The notes beneath the pieces were generated by a model. The model was given only the letters and a program-made list of their open reading frames with translations, was not told where the DNA came from and did not search any database. The position numbers and the translations under genes were made by a program. A DNA stretch of 64,000 nt from a virus (lineage: Duplodnaviria; Caudoviricetes), in IMG/VR virus record IMGVR_UViG_3300046318_000318; one strand, given 5' to 3'. Of the stretch, positions 2,841 through 34,425 are shown one piece after another (positions within the stretch are counted from its first letter, which is position 1; every line of letters begins with the position of its first letter).

Positions 2841-3185
2841 CATAACTACCTCACTCTAGCTTTAACTAAGTTCGCTAAACTTATTGATCTTGCTTAAGGA
2901 TCCTGATACTTTCATATCAGATTAGACTATATCTTCATCTTTCGATGCTCTTCGTTTCCACTCGCTTGAGTGTACTCCCATGTGGGATAGTCGTTGACCA
3001 CACTCCATGTAAGTATATATGTCTATACTTAGTTAGGAGCTTCGGTGCGGATTGCCCAATCCTTGTATCTTTTACCATACCCAGATAGTTACTCTGGCCA
3101 CTGCATATATTTCTATCGCAGTTTGGTGCACAAGGCTCTAAGGAGTTTCCCGCAATTAGAAGAGTTTAAACGACGGCAACACTCT
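2841..3185 (-). ncRNA. group I intron 2 (ORF-less, 345 nt) in the RNAP gene
   Basis: P AATTGCGGGAAA, Q AATCCGCA, R GTCAACGACTA, S AAGATATAGTC; P1 GACGGU/GCCGUC with U.G at the splice site; P10 AGAGUGUU/GACGCUCU; ends in G. Confidence 0.92.
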
Positions 3186-3206
3186 ACCGTCAAAATCAGC
3201 ATTTGG
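3186..3206 (-). CDS. nvRNAP beta-prime subunit, 21-nt micro-exon 2 (PNADFDG)
   Basis: CCA AAT GCT GAT TTT GAC GGT between two intron cores; restores HILTVRAPNADFDGD, same spacing as bacterial HPLVCAAYNADFDGD. Confidence 0.9.
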
Positions 3207-5197
3207 CTTATTGTCCAGTAAAGTCGCTCAGCTTCACAGCTTACCCTCTTTACCCGGTGCGCTTACACACCCACCTGTACTTTCATACAGGAACAGATCA
3301 TATCTTCATCCTTATTAAAGGATGCTCTCCGCTTCTTCCCTGCTTAGGGCTTTACTCGGTCGCAACTCCGATGATCGTTGAACTTTACGCATGGTTGATA
3401 AGAATCAACTTTAGCGTCTTAGCTGCTGATTACCCAATTCTTATATTTTTCAAACTATCACGCTCATCGTTTCCGATCACGTTGTAGTATATAAGACTCT
3501 AAAGGACTTCCCAGCAATTCAAAGAGATAACTTAGTCAATTACTCAACTAAGTGCCTTATCTCATCATTATTAAAATACAATGTCAATCGCCACACACCG
3601 CCTATCAATGCTTTTCTTCTAGCTATTGTAGGGATATATTGTCTAGCATACCCAAATTGCTGACTAATATCTATAGGACTTGTTATAATCCTAGTTTCGC
3701 CAGTTTCAACGTTTTCGATAAAATATCCGTTACCCCTAAAAGATCTTTTATCGAGACATAATTGTTTAAAGTACCTCAGCTCCTTATCGGTAAGATCTTT
3801 AAACTGTCCGTTGAAACTAAATTGCCAACCTTTAATCGGAATGTTCTTTAATCTTTTATTTTTAATAGATAGTTGAACACCCCATGAAACACCAGTTATT
3901 TTCTCACAAGCTGCCAGCGATTCAAATTTACGTTCTTTGCGTGTGAATATATTTCTAGCAGTAACTGGTATTTTTATTTGTAAATCTTCTAAGGATGGTT
4001 TTTCCTGAGGCCATGGTCTTGCATCTAATTTTCGTTTGAAACATAATCCGTCTGAATAGATTTTAATATCGGAAGATCTAAGTCTGACGGACACGGTTAG
4101 TTCAGAATATCCAAGTTTCAGAGAGCAATCCCTAGCACTTTTATATTCAGTCACCTCATCCGTGATTATGTTTTTAACAAGTATTGCTGAACCATACCTG
4201 AATTGATCGTACTCATTTTCTAAATTTTCATAATTTTTCCATTCTTTTAATTCAGATAGCCATTGAAACTGCATGTAATTTTCCCAAAGTTTACAACCGG
4301 GTTTTGTTTTTAACCGATGGTAAAGTAAATCATTACTCAAGCCTAATGCAATTGCGCATTGCGTCGGGTTATCATAAATAGTGATTTCATTGGTTTTAAC
4401 ATTTCTAGTTATGACGTCTATGGTATACTTTTTCTCATTTTCAAGAATTCTATTTACTTTTTCATCAGATCTATCACAATTCGAATAAATGACATTTCCT
4501 CTAGGTGTCACCCATTCTAAATTATCTAAGGTGTCAAAGCCAGGTATCTCATTTTTATGATTTACGTACAGCGATTCAACGTTTCTAGGATAATCTAGCC
4601 ATGCTAAGCACATAGCTCTGTGTCTGAAAAATTTGTAAGATGTATTCTCATTAAGGGAAACATCAGGAATACCTGAATAGGAATGGTAACCATCTCTATC
4701 ACAAAAAGCTTTTTTATCCACACCAGTTATCAAATTTCTAACTTTTCCTTCCTTTGTTATACCATATCTTGTAAAACCAGGAATATAAGCATGATCTTTG
4801 TGTACTGGATGTGATAAACCAACTGGAAATTTCCAAATCAAGTTGCTAGGATGAGAGTTATTAAAATCACCGTCCTCGAACATCAAGTGTAATAAATGCA
4901 CTTGACTTTCATGAACGTGAACGGGCTTAAAAGCCGAAGCTATGATAAACTCTATTGGATATAGACCAGGACCTCTTATCCAATCTAAGAAAATCAAAGT
5001 GCTTCCTGTTTCAGTTGAGATACACTCAATCTGAATGTTCTCTCGCGATATGACATCACCTTCTGAGTTAACAGAATAACGACCGTCAGACCAGGGTAGC
5101 GAAAGATAGTTTTGGGTTTGTAAATATTTACTAAGCATATATCCTTTCTATATAGAAAGGTATGCTAAACGGCGATTGACAATAATGATAAGAATTA
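3207..5197 (-). mobile_element. group I intron 1 (1991 nt) carrying an HNH homing endonuclease
   Basis: After the ORF: P AATTGCTGGGAA, Q AATCAGCAG, R GTTCAACGATCA, S AAGATATGATC (P7 GAUCA/UGAUC); exon ends in U (GCT); intron ends in G. Confidence 0.9.
3540..5138 (-). CDS. intron-encoded HNH homing endonuclease with C-terminal DNA-binding repeats
   Basis: VNHKNEIPGFDTLDNLEWVT HNH motif, degenerate first copy DGDFNNSHPSNLIW, repeats such as YKSARDCSLKLG and FESLAACEKITG. Confidence 0.88.
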   Translation of the reverse strand: MLSKYLQTQNYLSLPWSDGRYSVNSEGDVISRENIQIECISTETGSTLIFLDWIRGPGLYPIEFIIASAFKPVHVHESQVHLLHLMFEDGDFNNSHPSNLIWKFPVGLSHPVHKDHAYIPGFTRYGITKEGKVRNLITGVDKKAFCDRDGYHSYSGIPDVSLNENTSYKFFRHRAMCLAWLDYPRNVESLYVNHKNEIPGFDTLDNLEWVTPRGNVIYSNCDRSDEKVNRILENEKKYTIDVITRNVKTNEITIYDNPTQCAIALGLSNDLLYHRLKTKPGCKLWENYMQFQWLSELKEWKNYENLENEYDQFRYGSAILVKNIITDEVTEYKSARDCSLKLGYSELTVSVRLRSSDIKIYSDGLCFKRKLDARPWPQEKPSLEDLQIKIPVTARNIFTRKERKFESLAACEKITGVSWGVQLSIKNKRLKNIPIKGWQFSFNGQFKDLTDKELRYFKQLCLDKRSFRGNGYFIENVETGETRIITSPIDISQQFGYARQYIPTIARRKALIGGVWRLTLYFNNDEIRHLVE

Positions 5198-20314: not shown

Positions 20315-20626
20315 TGGTAGGCAGGATGAGATTCGAACTCACTATCTTCGGCTTCACATTTGTGTTAGTTTCCTAACTCTGTGGACTATATCACCATCCT
20401 TAACTTAATATTAGGATGTCGGGCGCTTTACTCTGTTATTAAGAAGATTCTACTTCTCAGATAGTCTCTGCACTTTCCTAGGGTATACCCTAAGCTTAGC
20501 TCAGTATTGCCGTCGTCATTATACGTTACGGTTTCACTGAATTCACCCGATTATTCAATACTGATTACTCAGTAAGGTCACCATTGAGATGAGGCCGCCG
20601 CTTATAACCCCTTAAGCTTCCCGCCT
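20315..20626 (-). tRNA. tRNA with CAU anticodon (probably Ile2), interrupted at 36/37; exons 20589-20626 and 20315-20354
   Basis: Acceptor AGGCGGG/CCTGCCT-A-CCA, loop CT-CAT|AA, T arm GTGAG-TTCGAAT-CTCAT; adjacent to tilS. Confidence 0.88.
20355..20588 (-). ncRNA. group I intron (IC3-like, 234 nt) in tRNA-CAU
   Basis: GAATTCAGTGAAACC, AATACTGAGCTAAGC, GTGCAGAGACTA, GATATAGTCC; P1 CAU/GUG; ends in G; layout like the Azoarcus tRNA-Ile intron. Confidence 0.9.
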
Positions 20627-20635
20627 ATTTTACAC

Positions 20636-20939
20636 TGGTCCGCCCGGCAAGAATCGAACTTGCAACTAAAACTTAGCGTCACACTATAGTTTTCACTACC
20701 AGGTTACCCTGTTTGTGCGCTGGACTTTGTCTTGATCATGACCTACTTATGATAGGTTTTAGATCTTTGCCGTCAAGTCTCTACACGTTCTATCCCTTTT
20801 GAAAAAGATAGCTTCGCTCGGCGTTGGCATCAGCATTACCTGTTAAGCGTTCACCGAATTTGACAAAATTCACTGAATACTTTCGACATCCAGTGCTCCT
20901 AATTGAAGGTTCTTGTTATATCCATTTAACTACGGGCAG
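20636..20939 (-). tRNA. tRNA-Arg(UCU) interrupted at 34/35; exons 20906-20939 and 20636-20676
   Basis: CTGCCCG/CGGGCGG-A-CCA, D arm GTTA-AATGGATA-TAAC with A20, loop CTT|CTAA, T arm GCAAG-TTCGATT-CTTGC. Confidence 0.88.
20677..20905 (-). ncRNA. group I intron (IC3-like, 229 nt) in tRNA-Arg
   Basis: AAATTCGGTGAA, AACGCCGAGC, GTGTAGAGACTT, GACAAAGTCC (P7 GACUU/AAGUC); short P1 with U.G; ends in G. Confidence 0.9.
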
Positions 20940-32101: not shown

Positions 32102-32201
32102 AACAAAGCCAACATGAATCGAACATGTTAAGTAAATATAACCTTCTACGCAGAATAGCACTGCTCCAGTTAATTTACTTGCCTCTACCAGACGGCTTTG
32201 T
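32102..32201 (-). ncRNA. tRNA-like element without a normal anticodon arm
   Basis: 9-bp AACAAAGCC/GGCTTTGTT stem, TGGTAGAG D-loop-like segment, T arm AACATG-TTCGATT-CATGTT, 12-bp anticodon-position stem with 26-nt loop, no CCA. Confidence 0.6.
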
Positions 32202-33366
32202 TTCTCTATTTATTACAAGATAGAGAAGGATGTGTCAGTCACCGCATCCAAGATATTTATAACACCGACTCGTGTTACCGGTTTGTCCAAACCTGGTGAA
32301 AGGATAAGCTACATCTGTTTAACTCAATCGCCACATACCCAGTAGTTCAGGTAAGGGTTAAGATGATTGTGCTATAATAAGCACAGAGCCTTAATACGAC
32401 AGTGTTTTAATTCATCAACATAACACTGAAGATACCCGAGTTCTCAATAGAGAATCTCGCTGTATTTTTGATGCCTAAGCACTCTAAAGCTATCTCTCCT
32501 AAAATAAGAGATAGCTTATAGGCTGCTCTCTGGGGTGATCAATCCCAAAGTTTACAACTTCCCAAAGATATCATTCATACAGTTCCCGACCAAGGGTAGT
32601 CTATATAAGAGATATCCATAGGGCGTACGATTTGGCGGTTGGTTAGACCACCTTCTACTCCTTAACAAAAAGTTAAAGGCAGGCTATTATCGTGAGCGCA
32701 CCTCTTTCTATTACACACTTGTGATGTGTTTCGTCCTTGTGTTTAAAGCCTTAGGACTCATCAGATAGATAAGGCTCAAATGAAGTTTATGTGGCCTCAT
32801 TCTTTTATAAAGGGGTTTTCCCATAGCAGACTAAATGACTTCTGTCTATCTAATCTGCTACAGGCAAACACCTGAGTGCTAACTTGTTATCATATCACAA
32901 AGGTAGATAACCACAACCTATTACAATAAAGACGTGTGAATCGCCTGCTTGCTTTGGCAAGAACAGCCCTCGAAGCTAGAGCCACATCAGGTCTGAACAA
33001 TCGTCAGAACACATGATCCCAGGGGATTTAAAAAGCATCAAACACAGTTCTGGGAAACTATGTGCTAGATCGACAGTTTATATTTTCCTTGTTTTATCAA
33101 CTAAGTGAAAATACCGATCACTTTATACTGCTCCATCGTGCGTGTATTTTGTTATCACGCTAACGTCCCGATAGTACGTTTACCTAAGTTACCAATGGTC
33201 AATACCTGCACCCTAGCCTTACGCCCGCAAGCGATCTATTAACTTAACTCCGTAATCCGCAATGATATACGCACATTAAGAAATGTTTACACACTAGATT
33301 TACTAAGCAGCGACTTGTTAGTTACCATTGATACGATCAAGTCTACTCCGGTTTACTTAGGTTAAA
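32202..33366 (-). ncRNA. long ORF-free structured region containing a hammerhead
   Basis: No ORF of 60 aa or more in ~1.15 kb; many hairpins. Confidence 0.55.
32707..32769 (-). ncRNA. type I hammerhead ribozyme, predicted cleavage after GUA (between 32712 and 32711)
   Basis: UCUAU-CUGAUGA-GUCC..GGAC-GAAA-CACA..UGUG-UA|AUAGA: all core nucleotides and three helices present. Confidence 0.88.
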
Positions 33367-33425
33367 TGGTACCAGGAACGGGACTCGAACCCGTAAGACC
33401 CTTGCGGAAGTATTAAGTTTTTAAA
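33367..33425 (-). pseudogene. 3' half of a broken tRNA-Leu
   Basis: TTTAAAA remnant loop, long variable arm with GCAA loop, ACGGG-TTCGAGT-CCCGT, TCCTGGT-A-CCA. Confidence 0.75.
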
Positions 33426-33434
33426 GTACATGGG

Positions 33435-33743
33435 TGGCCCGCTCCGGAATCGAACCGGAACGCCCCTTACGAAAGCGTCAGATTTTAAGTCTGATCTCTA
33501 CCACTGCAGTTTTCACTGCCACTTTAGTGTGTTTGTGGTCTGGACTATCCCTTCAACTACATCCTAAATGTTTAGCTGGGCGATTATAGTCTCTGCACGT
33601 CTTTCTATATTTCTATAGAAATTTCGCTCAGGATTGGCATCAGCAATTAACTGTTAAGCTTTCCCTGAATTTACGCCATTTTACTACATTATTTCTAATG
33701 TAGGACACATCAAATATATGTCTACCTATTTCATCAGCGGGCC
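33435..33743 (-). tRNA. tRNA-Leu(UAA) interrupted in the D arm at 25/26; exons 33718-33743 and 33435-33495; CCA not encoded
   Basis: GGCCCGC/GCGGGCC-A, GGTAGACAT|A, TCAGA-CTTAAAA-TCTGA, long variable arm, TCCGG-TTCGATT-CCGGA. Confidence 0.9.
33496..33717 (-). ncRNA. group I intron (IC3-like, 222 nt) in the tRNA-Leu D arm
   Basis: AAATTCAGGGAAA, AATCCTGAGC, GTGCAGAGACTA, GGATAGTCC; P1 GACAU/GUGUC, P10 AUCAGA/UUUGAU; ends in G. Confidence 0.92.
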
Positions 33744-33754
33744 ACCCATGTACT

Positions 33755-34255
33755 CTATTTCTTTTCTAATCTGTAGTATTCTTTCTTTATTTCAGTTCTT
33801 TCGATGATCACGCCGCCATTTTGAACTTTGGCGCCATAAGAACCTGAACATTTTTTACTACAAAAAGGACCTGCTCTATTAGAAACATAATTAGTTATCT
33901 GATTTTTACTAGGGGTAAATATTTCCTCACACCCAGCACACTTTACAGGATCCACCTTTACTCGTTTAGCGTCTTCACTTGCGTGAACAGGCAGTGTTTT
34001 AACAATAAGGTTATTTAGAGAATTATTGGTGAAATTTCTATCGTGATGGTCAACAGTCTCACCGTCTTTTAACTTTTGTTTTAATTCAATTTCTTTTAAA
34101 GCCTTGGGGTAAGAGATGGTTTTGGTCTTACCTTTAGTCCCCTTAGCAGCTTTTGAATTATTTAAAACAATATGCTGTCGACCATCACTTCTGTGATAAG
34201 GACCTAAGACGGATGTATATTCTGGATATAATCCAAGAAGTATTTGCTTATCCAT
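33755..34255 (-). CDS. free-standing HNH endonuclease with C-terminal Cys4 Zn finger
   Basis: ETVDHHDRNFTNNSLNNL; CAGC...FCSKKC. Confidence 0.85.
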   Translation of the reverse strand: MDKQILLGLYPEYTSVLGPYHRSDGRQHIVLNNSKAAKGTKGKTKTISYPKALKEIELKQKLKDGETVDHHDRNFTNNSLNNLIVKTLPVHASEDAKRVKVDPVKCAGCEEIFTPSKNQITNYVSNRAGPFCSKKCSGSYGAKVQNGGVIIERTEIKKEYYRLEKK

Positions 34256-34260
34256 GTTTT

Positions 34261-34286
34261 CCCTTTACCGATTTGGGCATCCTGGT
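34261..34286 (-). pseudogene. 5' half (positions 1-25) of the broken tRNA-Leu
   Basis: ACCAGGA-TG-CCC-AAATCGGTAAA-GGG; ACCAGGA pairs perfectly with TCCTGGT of the 3' half. Confidence 0.78.
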
Positions 34287-34350
34287 AATATCTATATCTC
34301 ACGTTGCAGTCAGTTAGAATATTTATCACTAAATGATTCTAGAAAAGGAT

Positions 34351-34425
34351 TGGTGCCGGATGTCTGATTTGAACAGACGACCTATCGCTTACAAGGCGAG
34401 TGCTCTACCCCTGAGCTAATCCGGC
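34351..34425 (-). tRNA. tRNA-Thr(UGU), no intron
   Basis: GCCGGAT/ATCCGGC-A-CCA, loop CT-TGT-AA, TTCAAAT T loop. Confidence 0.93.

Follow-up and report, generated by a model that had tools for sequence, protein, structure and literature searches.

A putative homing cassette of an HNH endonuclease gene and a spare, intron-containing tRNA-Leu(UAA) gene nested in a broken tRNA-Leu(UAA) gene of a freshwater jumbo phage

The stretch of DNA analysed here (the window) comprises 64,000 nucleotides (nt) of the IMG/VR virus IMGVR_UViG_3300046318_000318 and is a fragment of a freshwater jumbo phage. On its minus strand, which carries the whole locus described below, a resident tRNA-Leu(UAA) gene is broken into two outer pieces that enclose a free-standing HNH endonuclease gene and a second tRNA-Leu(UAA) gene split by a group I intron (Table 1). 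We consider it likely, with a probability of about 0.72, that the HNH gene and the inner tRNA gene form a two-gene homing cassette, which was copied into the resident tRNA-Leu(UAA) gene. More generally, homing of such units, which carry a spare tRNA, into tRNA-Leu genes is well supported by the sequence comparisons presented here. A preliminary description of the region had proposed that a mobile unit of a nuclease and a spare tRNA destroyed the resident tRNA-Leu gene, and this proposal gained support from an empty-site allele, from the recurrence of the arrangement elsewhere and from a pattern seen throughout the nuclease family. All nested elements named in that description were found where it had placed them, on the minus strand.

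The outer 5′ piece reads ACCAGGATGCCCAAATCGGTAAAGGG at 34286–34261 (ACCAGGATGCCCAAATCGGTAAAGGGAA at 34286–34259, two further bases of the tRNA included), and the outer 3′ piece is GGTCTT-ACGGGTTCGAGTCCCGT-TCCTGGT-A-CCA (33400–33367), the final letters being ...ACGGGTTCGAGTCCCGTTCCTGGTACCA at 33367. Its acceptor strand pairs at 7/7 positions with ACCAGGA (34286–34280) of the 5′ piece. The origin of the two pieces was apparent from L001, an IMG/VR contig of 120 kb, in which the DprA-like protein is 97% identical and the DNA is ~93% identical on both sides of the locus. At the homologous place L001 carries an intact 89-nt tRNA-Leu(taa) gene, ACCAGGATGCCCAAATAGGTAAAGGG-A-ACGGA-TTTAAAA-TCCGT-...-ACGGGTTCGAGTCCCGT-TCCTGGT-A-CCA, to which the outer 5′ fragment is identical at 27/28 nt (L001:7216–7243) and the outer 3′ fragment at 34/34 nt. 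In the alignment with L001, identity extends through nt 27 of the tRNA on the 5′ side and is full again from GGTCTT on the 3′ side; between these points lie the cassette and then a tract which opens with the anticodon loop (TTTAAAA) and is elsewhere about half identical to L001. This alignment indicates that an insertion of ~830 base pairs (bp) replaced nt 28–31 of the resident gene. No copy of the inner tRNA or its intron was found in the 120-kb L001 contig.

The pairing of the outer pieces was also examined with a detector that joins an acceptor/D-arm piece with a T-arm/acceptor piece. Run over the 64-kb window, it returned four pairs on the minus strand, all of tRNA type, and the plus strand gave no pair. 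Considering this small number and the uninterrupted gene in L001, the pairing of the outer pieces is not due to chance. ARAGORN detected neither Leu gene on the raw window. A further uninterrupted variant was represented in DNA run X17 (freshwater, same samples), where a 234-nt contig joins position 33370 to 34294 with ~99 nt in between, which corresponds to the size of an uninterrupted gene. The nested form was present in nine contigs from several samples and in at least 14 freshwater metagenome DNA runs, thus it is not an assembly artefact, and together with the insert-less X17 contig this shows that both alleles coexist in nature. The preliminary description had assigned the outer pieces to one resident gene and looked to relatives for an intact ACCAGGA-type tRNA-Leu after tRNA-Thr; L001 carries this same gene uninterrupted at that position, and the insert-less X17 variant agrees with it.

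Two details of that description had to be amended. The matching 3′ half, which had been given as 33367–33425, holds for 33400–33367, while the segment 33425–33401 is strongly diverged and restores no anticodon stem. This segment keeps a variable-arm-like stem (ACUU/GGGU) and is probably the remnant of a different tRNA-Leu allele carried in with the insert, judging from its sequence. The claim that the resident gene and the inner gene are split at the same nucleotide proved to be correct within a few bases, but compared with L001 the resident gene is broken at 27/28 and 31/32, 2–6 nt from the 25/26 position of the inner gene. The 5-nt sequence AAAAC occurring at both cassette junctions was considered as a target-site duplication and was found too short to interpret.

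To assess whether the outer pieces can still form a tRNA, the 5′ piece was joined in silico to every possible start in the 3′ region (1,344 constructs, ARAGORN). The acceptor, D and T arms passed in all cases, but the best anticodon stems had 3/5 pairs (GAAAA/CUUCC or AUGUA/AACUU), so a functional split or spliced outer tRNA was rejected. Since no join restored the anticodon stem, the outer gene is dead. None of the contigs from RNA libraries joined the outer pieces, the sole join having been found in a DNA run. The joining of the outer halves in RNA, which the preliminary description had raised, thus found no support, either among RNA contigs or in the constructs, none of which yielded a working tRNA.

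The flanks of the locus showed two further peculiarities. In L001 the tRNA-Thr gene is the broken one (L001:6600–7215): it is interrupted after nt 17 (GCCGGATTAGCTCAGGG) by an insert with a 170-amino-acid (aa) open reading frame (ORF) that encodes an HNH_3 domain and a zinc finger, is 25% identical to the window HNH protein (a distant paralogue) and has a reading frame entering a decayed tRNA 3′ end. A replacement tRNA-Thr was not found in the 120-kb contig, where the Rfam tRNA model matched the tRNA-Leu only. Downstream of the CCA end of the outer gene, a stretch of 1.25 kb (window 32116–33366, minus strand; L001:7305–8560) is ~93.5% conserved in L001; it contains no ORF of at least 40 aa on the gene strand and no Rfam match at E ≤ 1, the hammerhead models included.

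Table 1. Features of the nested tRNA-Leu locus and its upstream neighbour (window coordinates)
Feature	Position	Strand	Basis
tRNA-Thr(UGU), intact, upstream neighbour	34351..34425	minus	ARAGORN; Rfam tRNA 68.9 bits
Orphan 5′ fragment of resident tRNA-Leu(UAA): acceptor strand, D arm, A26, A27	34259..34286	minus	identity to L001; detector
HNH endonuclease gene, free-standing, 166 aa	33755..34255	minus	
5′ strand of 22-bp closing helix: leader and acceptor strand of inner tRNA; overlaps HNH stop codon	33736..33757	minus	
Inner tRNA-Leu(UAA) exon 1: acceptor strand GGCCCGC and whole D arm, last nt U25	33718..33743	minus	
Group I intron, 222 nt, ORF-less, at tRNA nt 25/26	33496..33717	minus	Rfam RF00028; spliced product; fold; L164
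Inner tRNA-Leu(UAA) exon 2: A26, anticodon arm, long variable arm, T arm, acceptor strand, A73	33435..33495	minus	
3′ strand of 22-bp closing helix	33422..33443	minus	
Diverged tract UUUAAAAACUUAAUACUUCCGCAAG, at the position of the resident anticodon loop, 3′ anticodon-stem strand and variable arm	33401..33425 (25 nt)	minus	
Orphan 3′ fragment of resident tRNA-Leu: end of variable region, T arm, acceptor strand, A73, CCA	33367..33400	minus	

The locus lies in a phage-like, densely coded region of 40% G+C, with the gene order DprA-like gene, terminator, tRNA-Thr, outer 5′ piece, HNH gene, inner tRNA-Leu and outer 3′ piece. The spacer between tRNA-Thr and the outer 5′ piece is 64 nt. The ATG of the HNH gene follows the outer 5′ fragment at a distance of 3 nt, its stop codon precedes the inner tRNA by 11 nt, and the purine-rich end AAAGGGAAAAC of the outer 5′ fragment, located just before the ATG, probably serves as the ribosome-binding site.

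The product of the HNH gene matched PHROG 14913 ("HNH endonuclease") with E = 8.6e-15 and is of full length compared with the profile of its family, of which 147 homologues were found in metagenomes. The Pfam HNH_3 model scored 20.2 bits on the window protein, below the cut-off of 24.8, and was recognised in 22 of the 36 aligned family members (best E = 1.1e-8). Among these 36 sequences D69, H70 and N82 were invariant and H91 was present in at least 90%. C106, C109, C132 and C136 were likewise invariant and make up a C-terminal Cys4 zinc finger of the FCS type, the profile of which was detected in 12 members. The profile match to I-HmuI (1u3e) was weak (E = 0.5). The ORF is an intact, free-standing HNH endonuclease gene, the nuclease activity of which is predicted from these conserved residues.

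Joining the end of exon 1 (GGTAGACAT) to the start of exon 2 (ATCAGACTTAAAATCTGA) of the inner gene gave an 87-nt RNA, which ARAGORN identified as tRNA-Leu(taa); its acceptor stem has 7 bp and its D stem 3 bp, the anticodon stem pairs perfectly and A73 is present. It has the anticodon loop CUUAAAA and a long variable arm with a 6-bp stem (class II), and its CCA is not encoded, the genomic letters being ACCCA. The intervening sequence matched Rfam Intron_gpI (RF00028) at 33727–33519 with 59.7 bits (gathering score 50) and has no ORF on its own strand, ORFs of at least 40 aa touching it on the opposite strand only. Its guide, UGAU-GUGUC, is located at 33712–33704. In P1, GACAU/AU (the slash marks the 5′ splice site) pairs with AUGUGUC, with a U.G pair at the splice site and two pairs reaching into the intron; in P10, UGAU pairs with AUCA, the first four bases of exon 2, and the terminal omega-G is G33496. 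P1, P10 and this G together fix the junction at 25/26, the boundary between the D stem and the anticodon stem, so the ligated exon junction is predicted to be GGUAGACAU-AUCAGACUU. Alternative splice sites, for example from U16 to the internal GGUAGAG, would destroy the D stem and were rejected, the 25/26 site being backed by P1 and P10. The GGUAGAG motif at the 3′ end of the intron was also discarded as a relic of a duplicated D loop, because related anticodon-loop introns share this ending, e.g. AGUGGUAAG. An abundant 49-nt RNA match at 33444–33492 came from the intronless tRNA-Leu of another organism, with four mismatches.

The whole precursor of the inner tRNA is closed by a 22-bp helix (33757–33736 with 33443–33422), and its minimum free energy fold had z = −9.0. 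The helix is common to the window, L164 and L008, the loci with the GGCCCGC tRNA. One of its pairs is G:C in the window, A:T in L164 and T:A in L008, and a second pair flips from T:A to A:T, while the acceptor stem within the helix is unchanged in all three loci. These compensatory changes beside a constant acceptor stem indicate that the closing helix is under selection, and a duplex of 20 or more bp between the mRNA and the tRNA precursor suggests an RNase III-type processing site.

The same kind of cassette, the occurrence of which in other tRNA-Leu genes had been envisaged in the preliminary description, was identified in L005, L007/L009, L008, L012, L045, L164, L167 and the Salmonella phage PVP-SE1. 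L164, which derives from another study, contains an HNH protein 70% identical to that of the window, the same GGCCCGC tRNA-Leu and the same 25/26 intron. There, the cassette is preceded by a 5′ fragment, GGCCGAT..., ending in the D arm and followed by two stacked 3′ fragments, ...TGGAGGCA and ...CTCCCGCACCA, neither of which matches the 5′ fragment. In L008 the HNH protein is 62% identical and the tRNA is orthologous, but a different intron is inserted at 31/32; the remnants are GGGCGGA.../...TCTGCCC. L007/L009 have an inner tRNA-Leu with a classical 34/35 intron inside GCGGGGG.../...TCCCCGC. The inner tRNA-Leu of L005 lacks an intron and has an unusual D arm; it is flanked upstream by two different stacked 5′ fragments, one being nearly of the ACCA..GGG type of the window, and downstream by a single matching 3′ fragment. 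Such stacked or mismatched remnants fit a cassette that would drag along pieces of its earlier hosts. An orphan 5′ fragment, HNH and tRNA-Leu(UAA) follow one another in L012, L045, L056, L075, L085, L167 and PVP-SE1. In PVP-SE1, a cultured phage (NC_016071.1; L170:1447–2019), the fragment GCGTCCTTGGTCCAATCTGGTAGAGGCA abuts the ATG of an HNH homologue that is 41% identical, and an intronless tRNA-Leu(taa) begins 11 nt past its stop codon. This nuclease ORF is unannotated in NC_016071.1, while some related Seunavirus records annotate an HNH endonuclease there.

The relatives were recovered through profile-based searches only. In a DNA search of 50,697 deposited phage genomes for close relatives, tRNA-Thr alone matched, and neither the exact-pattern scans of viral contigs (with the outer 5′ piece and the exon-1/intron junction) nor a single-protein scan for HNH produced a match. 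The profile-based scans gave 76 viral and 80 metagenomic loci, which together with loci fetched earlier were reduced to 136 non-redundant ones. In 81 of these HNH lies immediately before a tRNA or inside a tRNA intron, the anticodon being mostly UAA. An intronless tRNA starts within ~0–120 nt after the HNH stop codon at 49 loci (42 with anticodon TAA), an intron-containing tRNA lies just downstream of HNH at 12, and at 20 HNH is located inside an anticodon-loop intron of the tRNA; in L017, L021, L039 and L040, which belong to this intron-encoded group, the Rfam intron core and the 3′ end of the ORF overlap. No tRNA was detected beside HNH at 49 loci, and the contig was truncated at six. Orphan 5′ fragments with a tRNA-Leu-type D arm were found not more than 160 nt upstream of HNH at 15/136 loci, and all of them end at nt 22–28; the remaining sequence of these loci gave an expectation of 0.004 per locus. 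Orphan 3′ fragments followed the inner tRNA at 6/61 loci (0.005 expected per locus). Where the 3′ side was readable (three loci), the resident gene is broken at nt 31–35, the orphan 3′ fragments beginning at nt 32–35. The recurrent breaks place the break region where the D arm meets the 5′ side of the anticodon stem-loop, which is likely to be the site of HNH cleavage or insertion, as far as sequence comparison can tell. As a separate observation, the UAA tRNAs following a family HNH in L022, L033, L047, L052, L150–L160 and others are only 73–77 nt long and have a short variable loop, thus they do not have the class II shape expected of bacterial tRNA-Leu; the start of several of them overlaps the HNH stop by 9 nt.

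The position of the introns raises the possibility that they protect the cargo gene. Introns of the cargo tRNAs occupy three sites (25/26, 31/32 and 34/35), all not more than 10 nt from the break region, and the site differs even between the orthologous exons of the window and L008. The D-arm motif GG[TC]AGAC[AG][CT] was present in 12/15 broken 5′ fragments, the exceptions including those of the window and L005. Among the cargo or host tRNAs, the motif was kept in 16/26 intron-containing genes versus 3/48 intronless ones (Fisher p = 4.5e-7, phylogeny ignored). In a rough comparison, the window intron showed an identity of 0.72–0.76 to anticodon-loop introns versus 0.63 to the 31/32 intron of L008, suggesting that introns may be exchanged or re-sited independently of exons.

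Homing of the cassette might proceed as follows. During co-infection, HNH would cut a cassette-free tRNA-Leu(UAA) gene where the D arm meets the anticodon stem-loop (~nt 26–32), and the break would be repaired from the cassette-bearing genome, with homology presumably supplied by the travelling tRNA remnants and the conserved sequences of the D and T arms. The cargo tRNA would make good the destroyed gene, and since it replaces that gene, the insertion would be cheap for a phage in which UUA and UUG make up 43% of the Leu codons. The cargo gene would be spared by its own nuclease because its target region is split by a self-splicing intron, at 25/26 here and at 31/32 or 34/35 in relatives, while in intronless cargo genes the D arm or the anticodon loop would have diverged instead. 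The 22-bp helix, as an RNase III-like processing site, may free the tRNA precursor from the HNH message. We put forward more tentatively the wider idea that the cassette is a small gene drive with a built-in rescue, destroying the tRNA-Leu(UAA) of a competitor and installing itself with an immune copy; the re-siting of introns and the divergent D arms could then be traces of an arms race, the introns would have been recruited as shields, and the family might preserve living intermediates on the way from a free-standing endonuclease to a mobile intron.

Several points weigh against this interpretation. We infer both that HNH cuts DNA and where it would cut, gain rather than loss of the insert is deduced by parsimony, and the enrichment statistics of the orphan fragments ignore the shared ancestry of the loci. 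The resident target of the window has GGTAAAGGG, not the D-arm motif found in most broken genes. Owing to its conserved 3′ tail, AGUGGUAGAG, the intron brings back a GGTAGAG resembling a D loop immediately ahead of the anticodon arm; the DNA at the 3′ junction therefore still resembles an uninterrupted gene, and the intron may shield it poorly. The cargo tRNAs of most relatives are intronless, so coexistence with the nuclease does not depend on an intron. Metatranscriptome contigs from three runs covered HNH, exon 1 and the 5′ portion of the intron, in unspliced form only; the spliced junction was absent from them, but assembled contigs capture tRNAs poorly. Being assembled contigs with possible DNA carry-over, these RNA data neither support nor refute splicing. 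Shielding of the cargo tRNA from HNH by the intron is plausible, with roughly even odds.

Other histories of the locus were considered as well. A tandem array of tRNA-Leu A, HNH, tRNA-Leu B and a second tRNA-Leu A could have decayed by two independent deletions that trimmed the A copies, in which case the outer pieces would not derive from a single gene. Phage tRNA clusters hold several Leu genes and free-standing HNH genes together, and the mismatch between the 5′ and 3′ remnants of L164 would suit such a decay. However, both flanks are colinear with L001, which has one intact gene exactly where the outer pieces lie, these pieces pair perfectly (7/7) in the acceptor and together lack only nt 28–31, and the breakpoint at nt 22–28 recurs in 15 independent loci; furthermore, a duplication and two precise deletions would have to be assumed in place of one insertion, which makes array decay very improbable. 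The HNH gene may alternatively have resided in a group I intron of the outer tRNA-Leu that has since decayed, the inner tRNA being unrelated or a later arrival, as there are family members inside anticodon-loop introns of tRNA(UAA) (20 loci, among them L017, L021, L039 and L040) and L056, where HNH is flanked on both sides by copies of the 5′ exon, resembles an intermediate. The gaps of only 3 nt and 11 nt beside HNH are nevertheless too short to contain the remains of a ribozyme, the outer 5′ piece ends with nt 27 and not with nt 34, the outer gene is intronless in L001, and in L164 HNH and the inner tRNA travel together as a cassette. This origin seems improbable to us.

That the outer halves are still used, either joined in RNA or as a processing tag through their 7-bp acceptor pairing, is barely credible. 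They have kept their acceptor strands, D arm, T arm and CCA intact, with hardly any change compared with L001, but this near-identity could be explained by a recent insertion, the best join has 3/5 anticodon-stem pairs, no RNA contig joins the halves, and the remnants are decayed or mismatched at other loci. A different objection accepts the cassette and regards the intron as an independent selfish passenger, with the divergence of the cargo genes caused by host defences that cut tRNA and not by HNH. Of the four group I introns of the window at least two reside in tRNA genes, its cargo intron is closer to anticodon-loop introns (0.72–0.76) than to the 31/32 intron of L008 (0.63), most cargo tRNAs are intronless, and phage tRNAs are known from the SegB/Septu work to counter anticodon nucleases (PMC13096335). 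The clustering of three intron sites within 10 nt of the break region and the strong association of intron presence with a target-like D arm speak against a mere passenger, and we consider it unlikely, though less so than the other alternatives. Homing of an HNH and tRNA-Leu(UAA) cassette into the resident gene thus remains our preferred explanation.

Some observations on other introns may be added. The remaining window introns above the Rfam gathering score are at 2903–3195, 3274–3584 and 20362–20615 (minus strand), and the detector indicated a further split tRNA at 20640–20939 (acceptor CTGCCCG/CGGGCGG, span 300 nt); the window phage is unusually intron-rich. A contig of RNA run X15 joins window position 34392 to 33531 with 28 other letters between; it connects a tRNA-Thr-like 3′ part, starting from the anticodon loop, with the 3′ region of an intron resembling that of the window by way of a P9-type hairpin and the tail AGUGGUAAG, which suggests a relative's tRNA-Thr with an anticodon-loop intron of the window-intron lineage. 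In L005, on a 223-kb contig of GCA_902729555.1, the nested tRNA-Leu locus is followed after 2 kb by a further intron-containing tRNA (L005:4944–5472) with the acceptor CTGTCTG/CAGACAG and an Rfam intron score of 49.1 bits. In the introns at tRNA-Leu(UAA) nt 31/32 (L008:2522–2851, L095 and L088), the base before the 5′ splice site is apparently A paired with U (CGGA with UCCG), not the usual U.G.

Free-standing endonucleases are known from phage tRNA regions. T4 SegB cuts tRNA genes at a T-arm motif and promotes tRNA gene amplification (PMC13096335), and the F-Tfl enzymes of T5 are encoded in its tRNA cluster. Like the HNH family, SegB is a free-standing phage homing endonuclease among tRNA genes, targets the tRNA genes of phages lacking it, and leads to co-inheritance of the neighbouring tRNA genes. 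However, SegB is a GIY-YIG enzyme located between tRNA genes and directed at a T-arm motif of many tRNAs, whereas the HNH gene lies inside its presumed target gene, and its family is tied to anticodon UAA and the D-arm/anticodon-arm junction and would bring a replacement gene. Collaborative homing, in which a free-standing endonuclease acts with an ORF-less intron, is known for protein genes. Here, too, a free-standing endonuclease adjoins a gene that is interrupted by an intron, which lies in or next to the presumed target, and the family has intron-encoded members, as the proposed pathway to mobile introns predicts. The differences are that the host gene is a tRNA gene, that the endonuclease lies inside a second copy of the target gene and not beside it, and that the intron site varies among close relatives (25/26, 31/32, 34/35) around a putative target site.

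Among bacterial tRNAs, anticodon-loop group I introns occur in cyanobacterial and plastid tRNA-Leu(UAA), and a tRNA-fMet intron with an intron-encoded endonuclease is mentioned in PMC3984707 with reference to Bonocora and Shub (2001). According to a 2014 review, introns were at that time unknown from phage tRNA genes. The surveys consulted place all tRNA group I introns in the anticodon loop, including one from 2020 that considered only eight positions of this loop (bioRxiv 10.1101/2020.01.27.920355). The introns described here belong to the same ribozyme class and reside in the same tRNA species, those at 34/35 being at the classical CUU/AAAA site, but the host is a phage, the window intron is found not in the anticodon loop but between the D and anticodon stems, and 20 relatives carry an HNH ORF, while the tRNA-Leu(UAA) introns known are ORF-less. 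Group I introns are thereby documented in phage tRNA genes, one of them outside the anticodon loop. The 25/26 site is not considered by current tRNA and intron finders, and ARAGORN missed or mislabelled the gene; such nests cause annotation pipelines to miss phage tRNAs and the nuclease gene. The tRNA introns of Lak megaphages include a tRNA-Thr "intron" predicted to encode a tRNA (bioRxiv 10.1101/356790). They share with our locus a tRNA gene inside a tRNA gene, a very large phage and alleles with or without the insert; however, those inserts are short, had no reported nuclease gene or ribozyme and were treated as enigmatic introns, whereas here a nuclease and tRNA cassette lies in a dead outer gene. 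In a full-text literature search, we found no account of a target tRNA gene that harbours a cassette of its nuclease and a replacement tRNA, of tRNA-Leu(UAA) introns containing HNH genes or of a tRNA group I intron at 25/26.

The family described here displays several stages in one small RNA gene, with the nuclease beside an intronless tRNA, beside an intron-bearing tRNA or inside the intron, and such a natural series makes the origin of mobile introns directly testable; cultured phages such as PVP-SE1 offer a laboratory system for testing the idea. Homing endonucleases usually spare their host by hiding in self-splicing introns or inteins or by sitting between genes. The HNH family would represent a third way, in which the target gene is broken and a replacement is carried along. 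Comparable in gene structure is mobE in nrdA of Aeromonas phage Aeh1, mentioned in PMC2330249 and also a free-standing HNH homing-endonuclease gene the insertion of which splits its host gene. The pieces of the Aeh1 gene, however, still form a working enzyme, whereas in the window the split tRNA gene is dead and its function would be replaced by the cargo tRNA.

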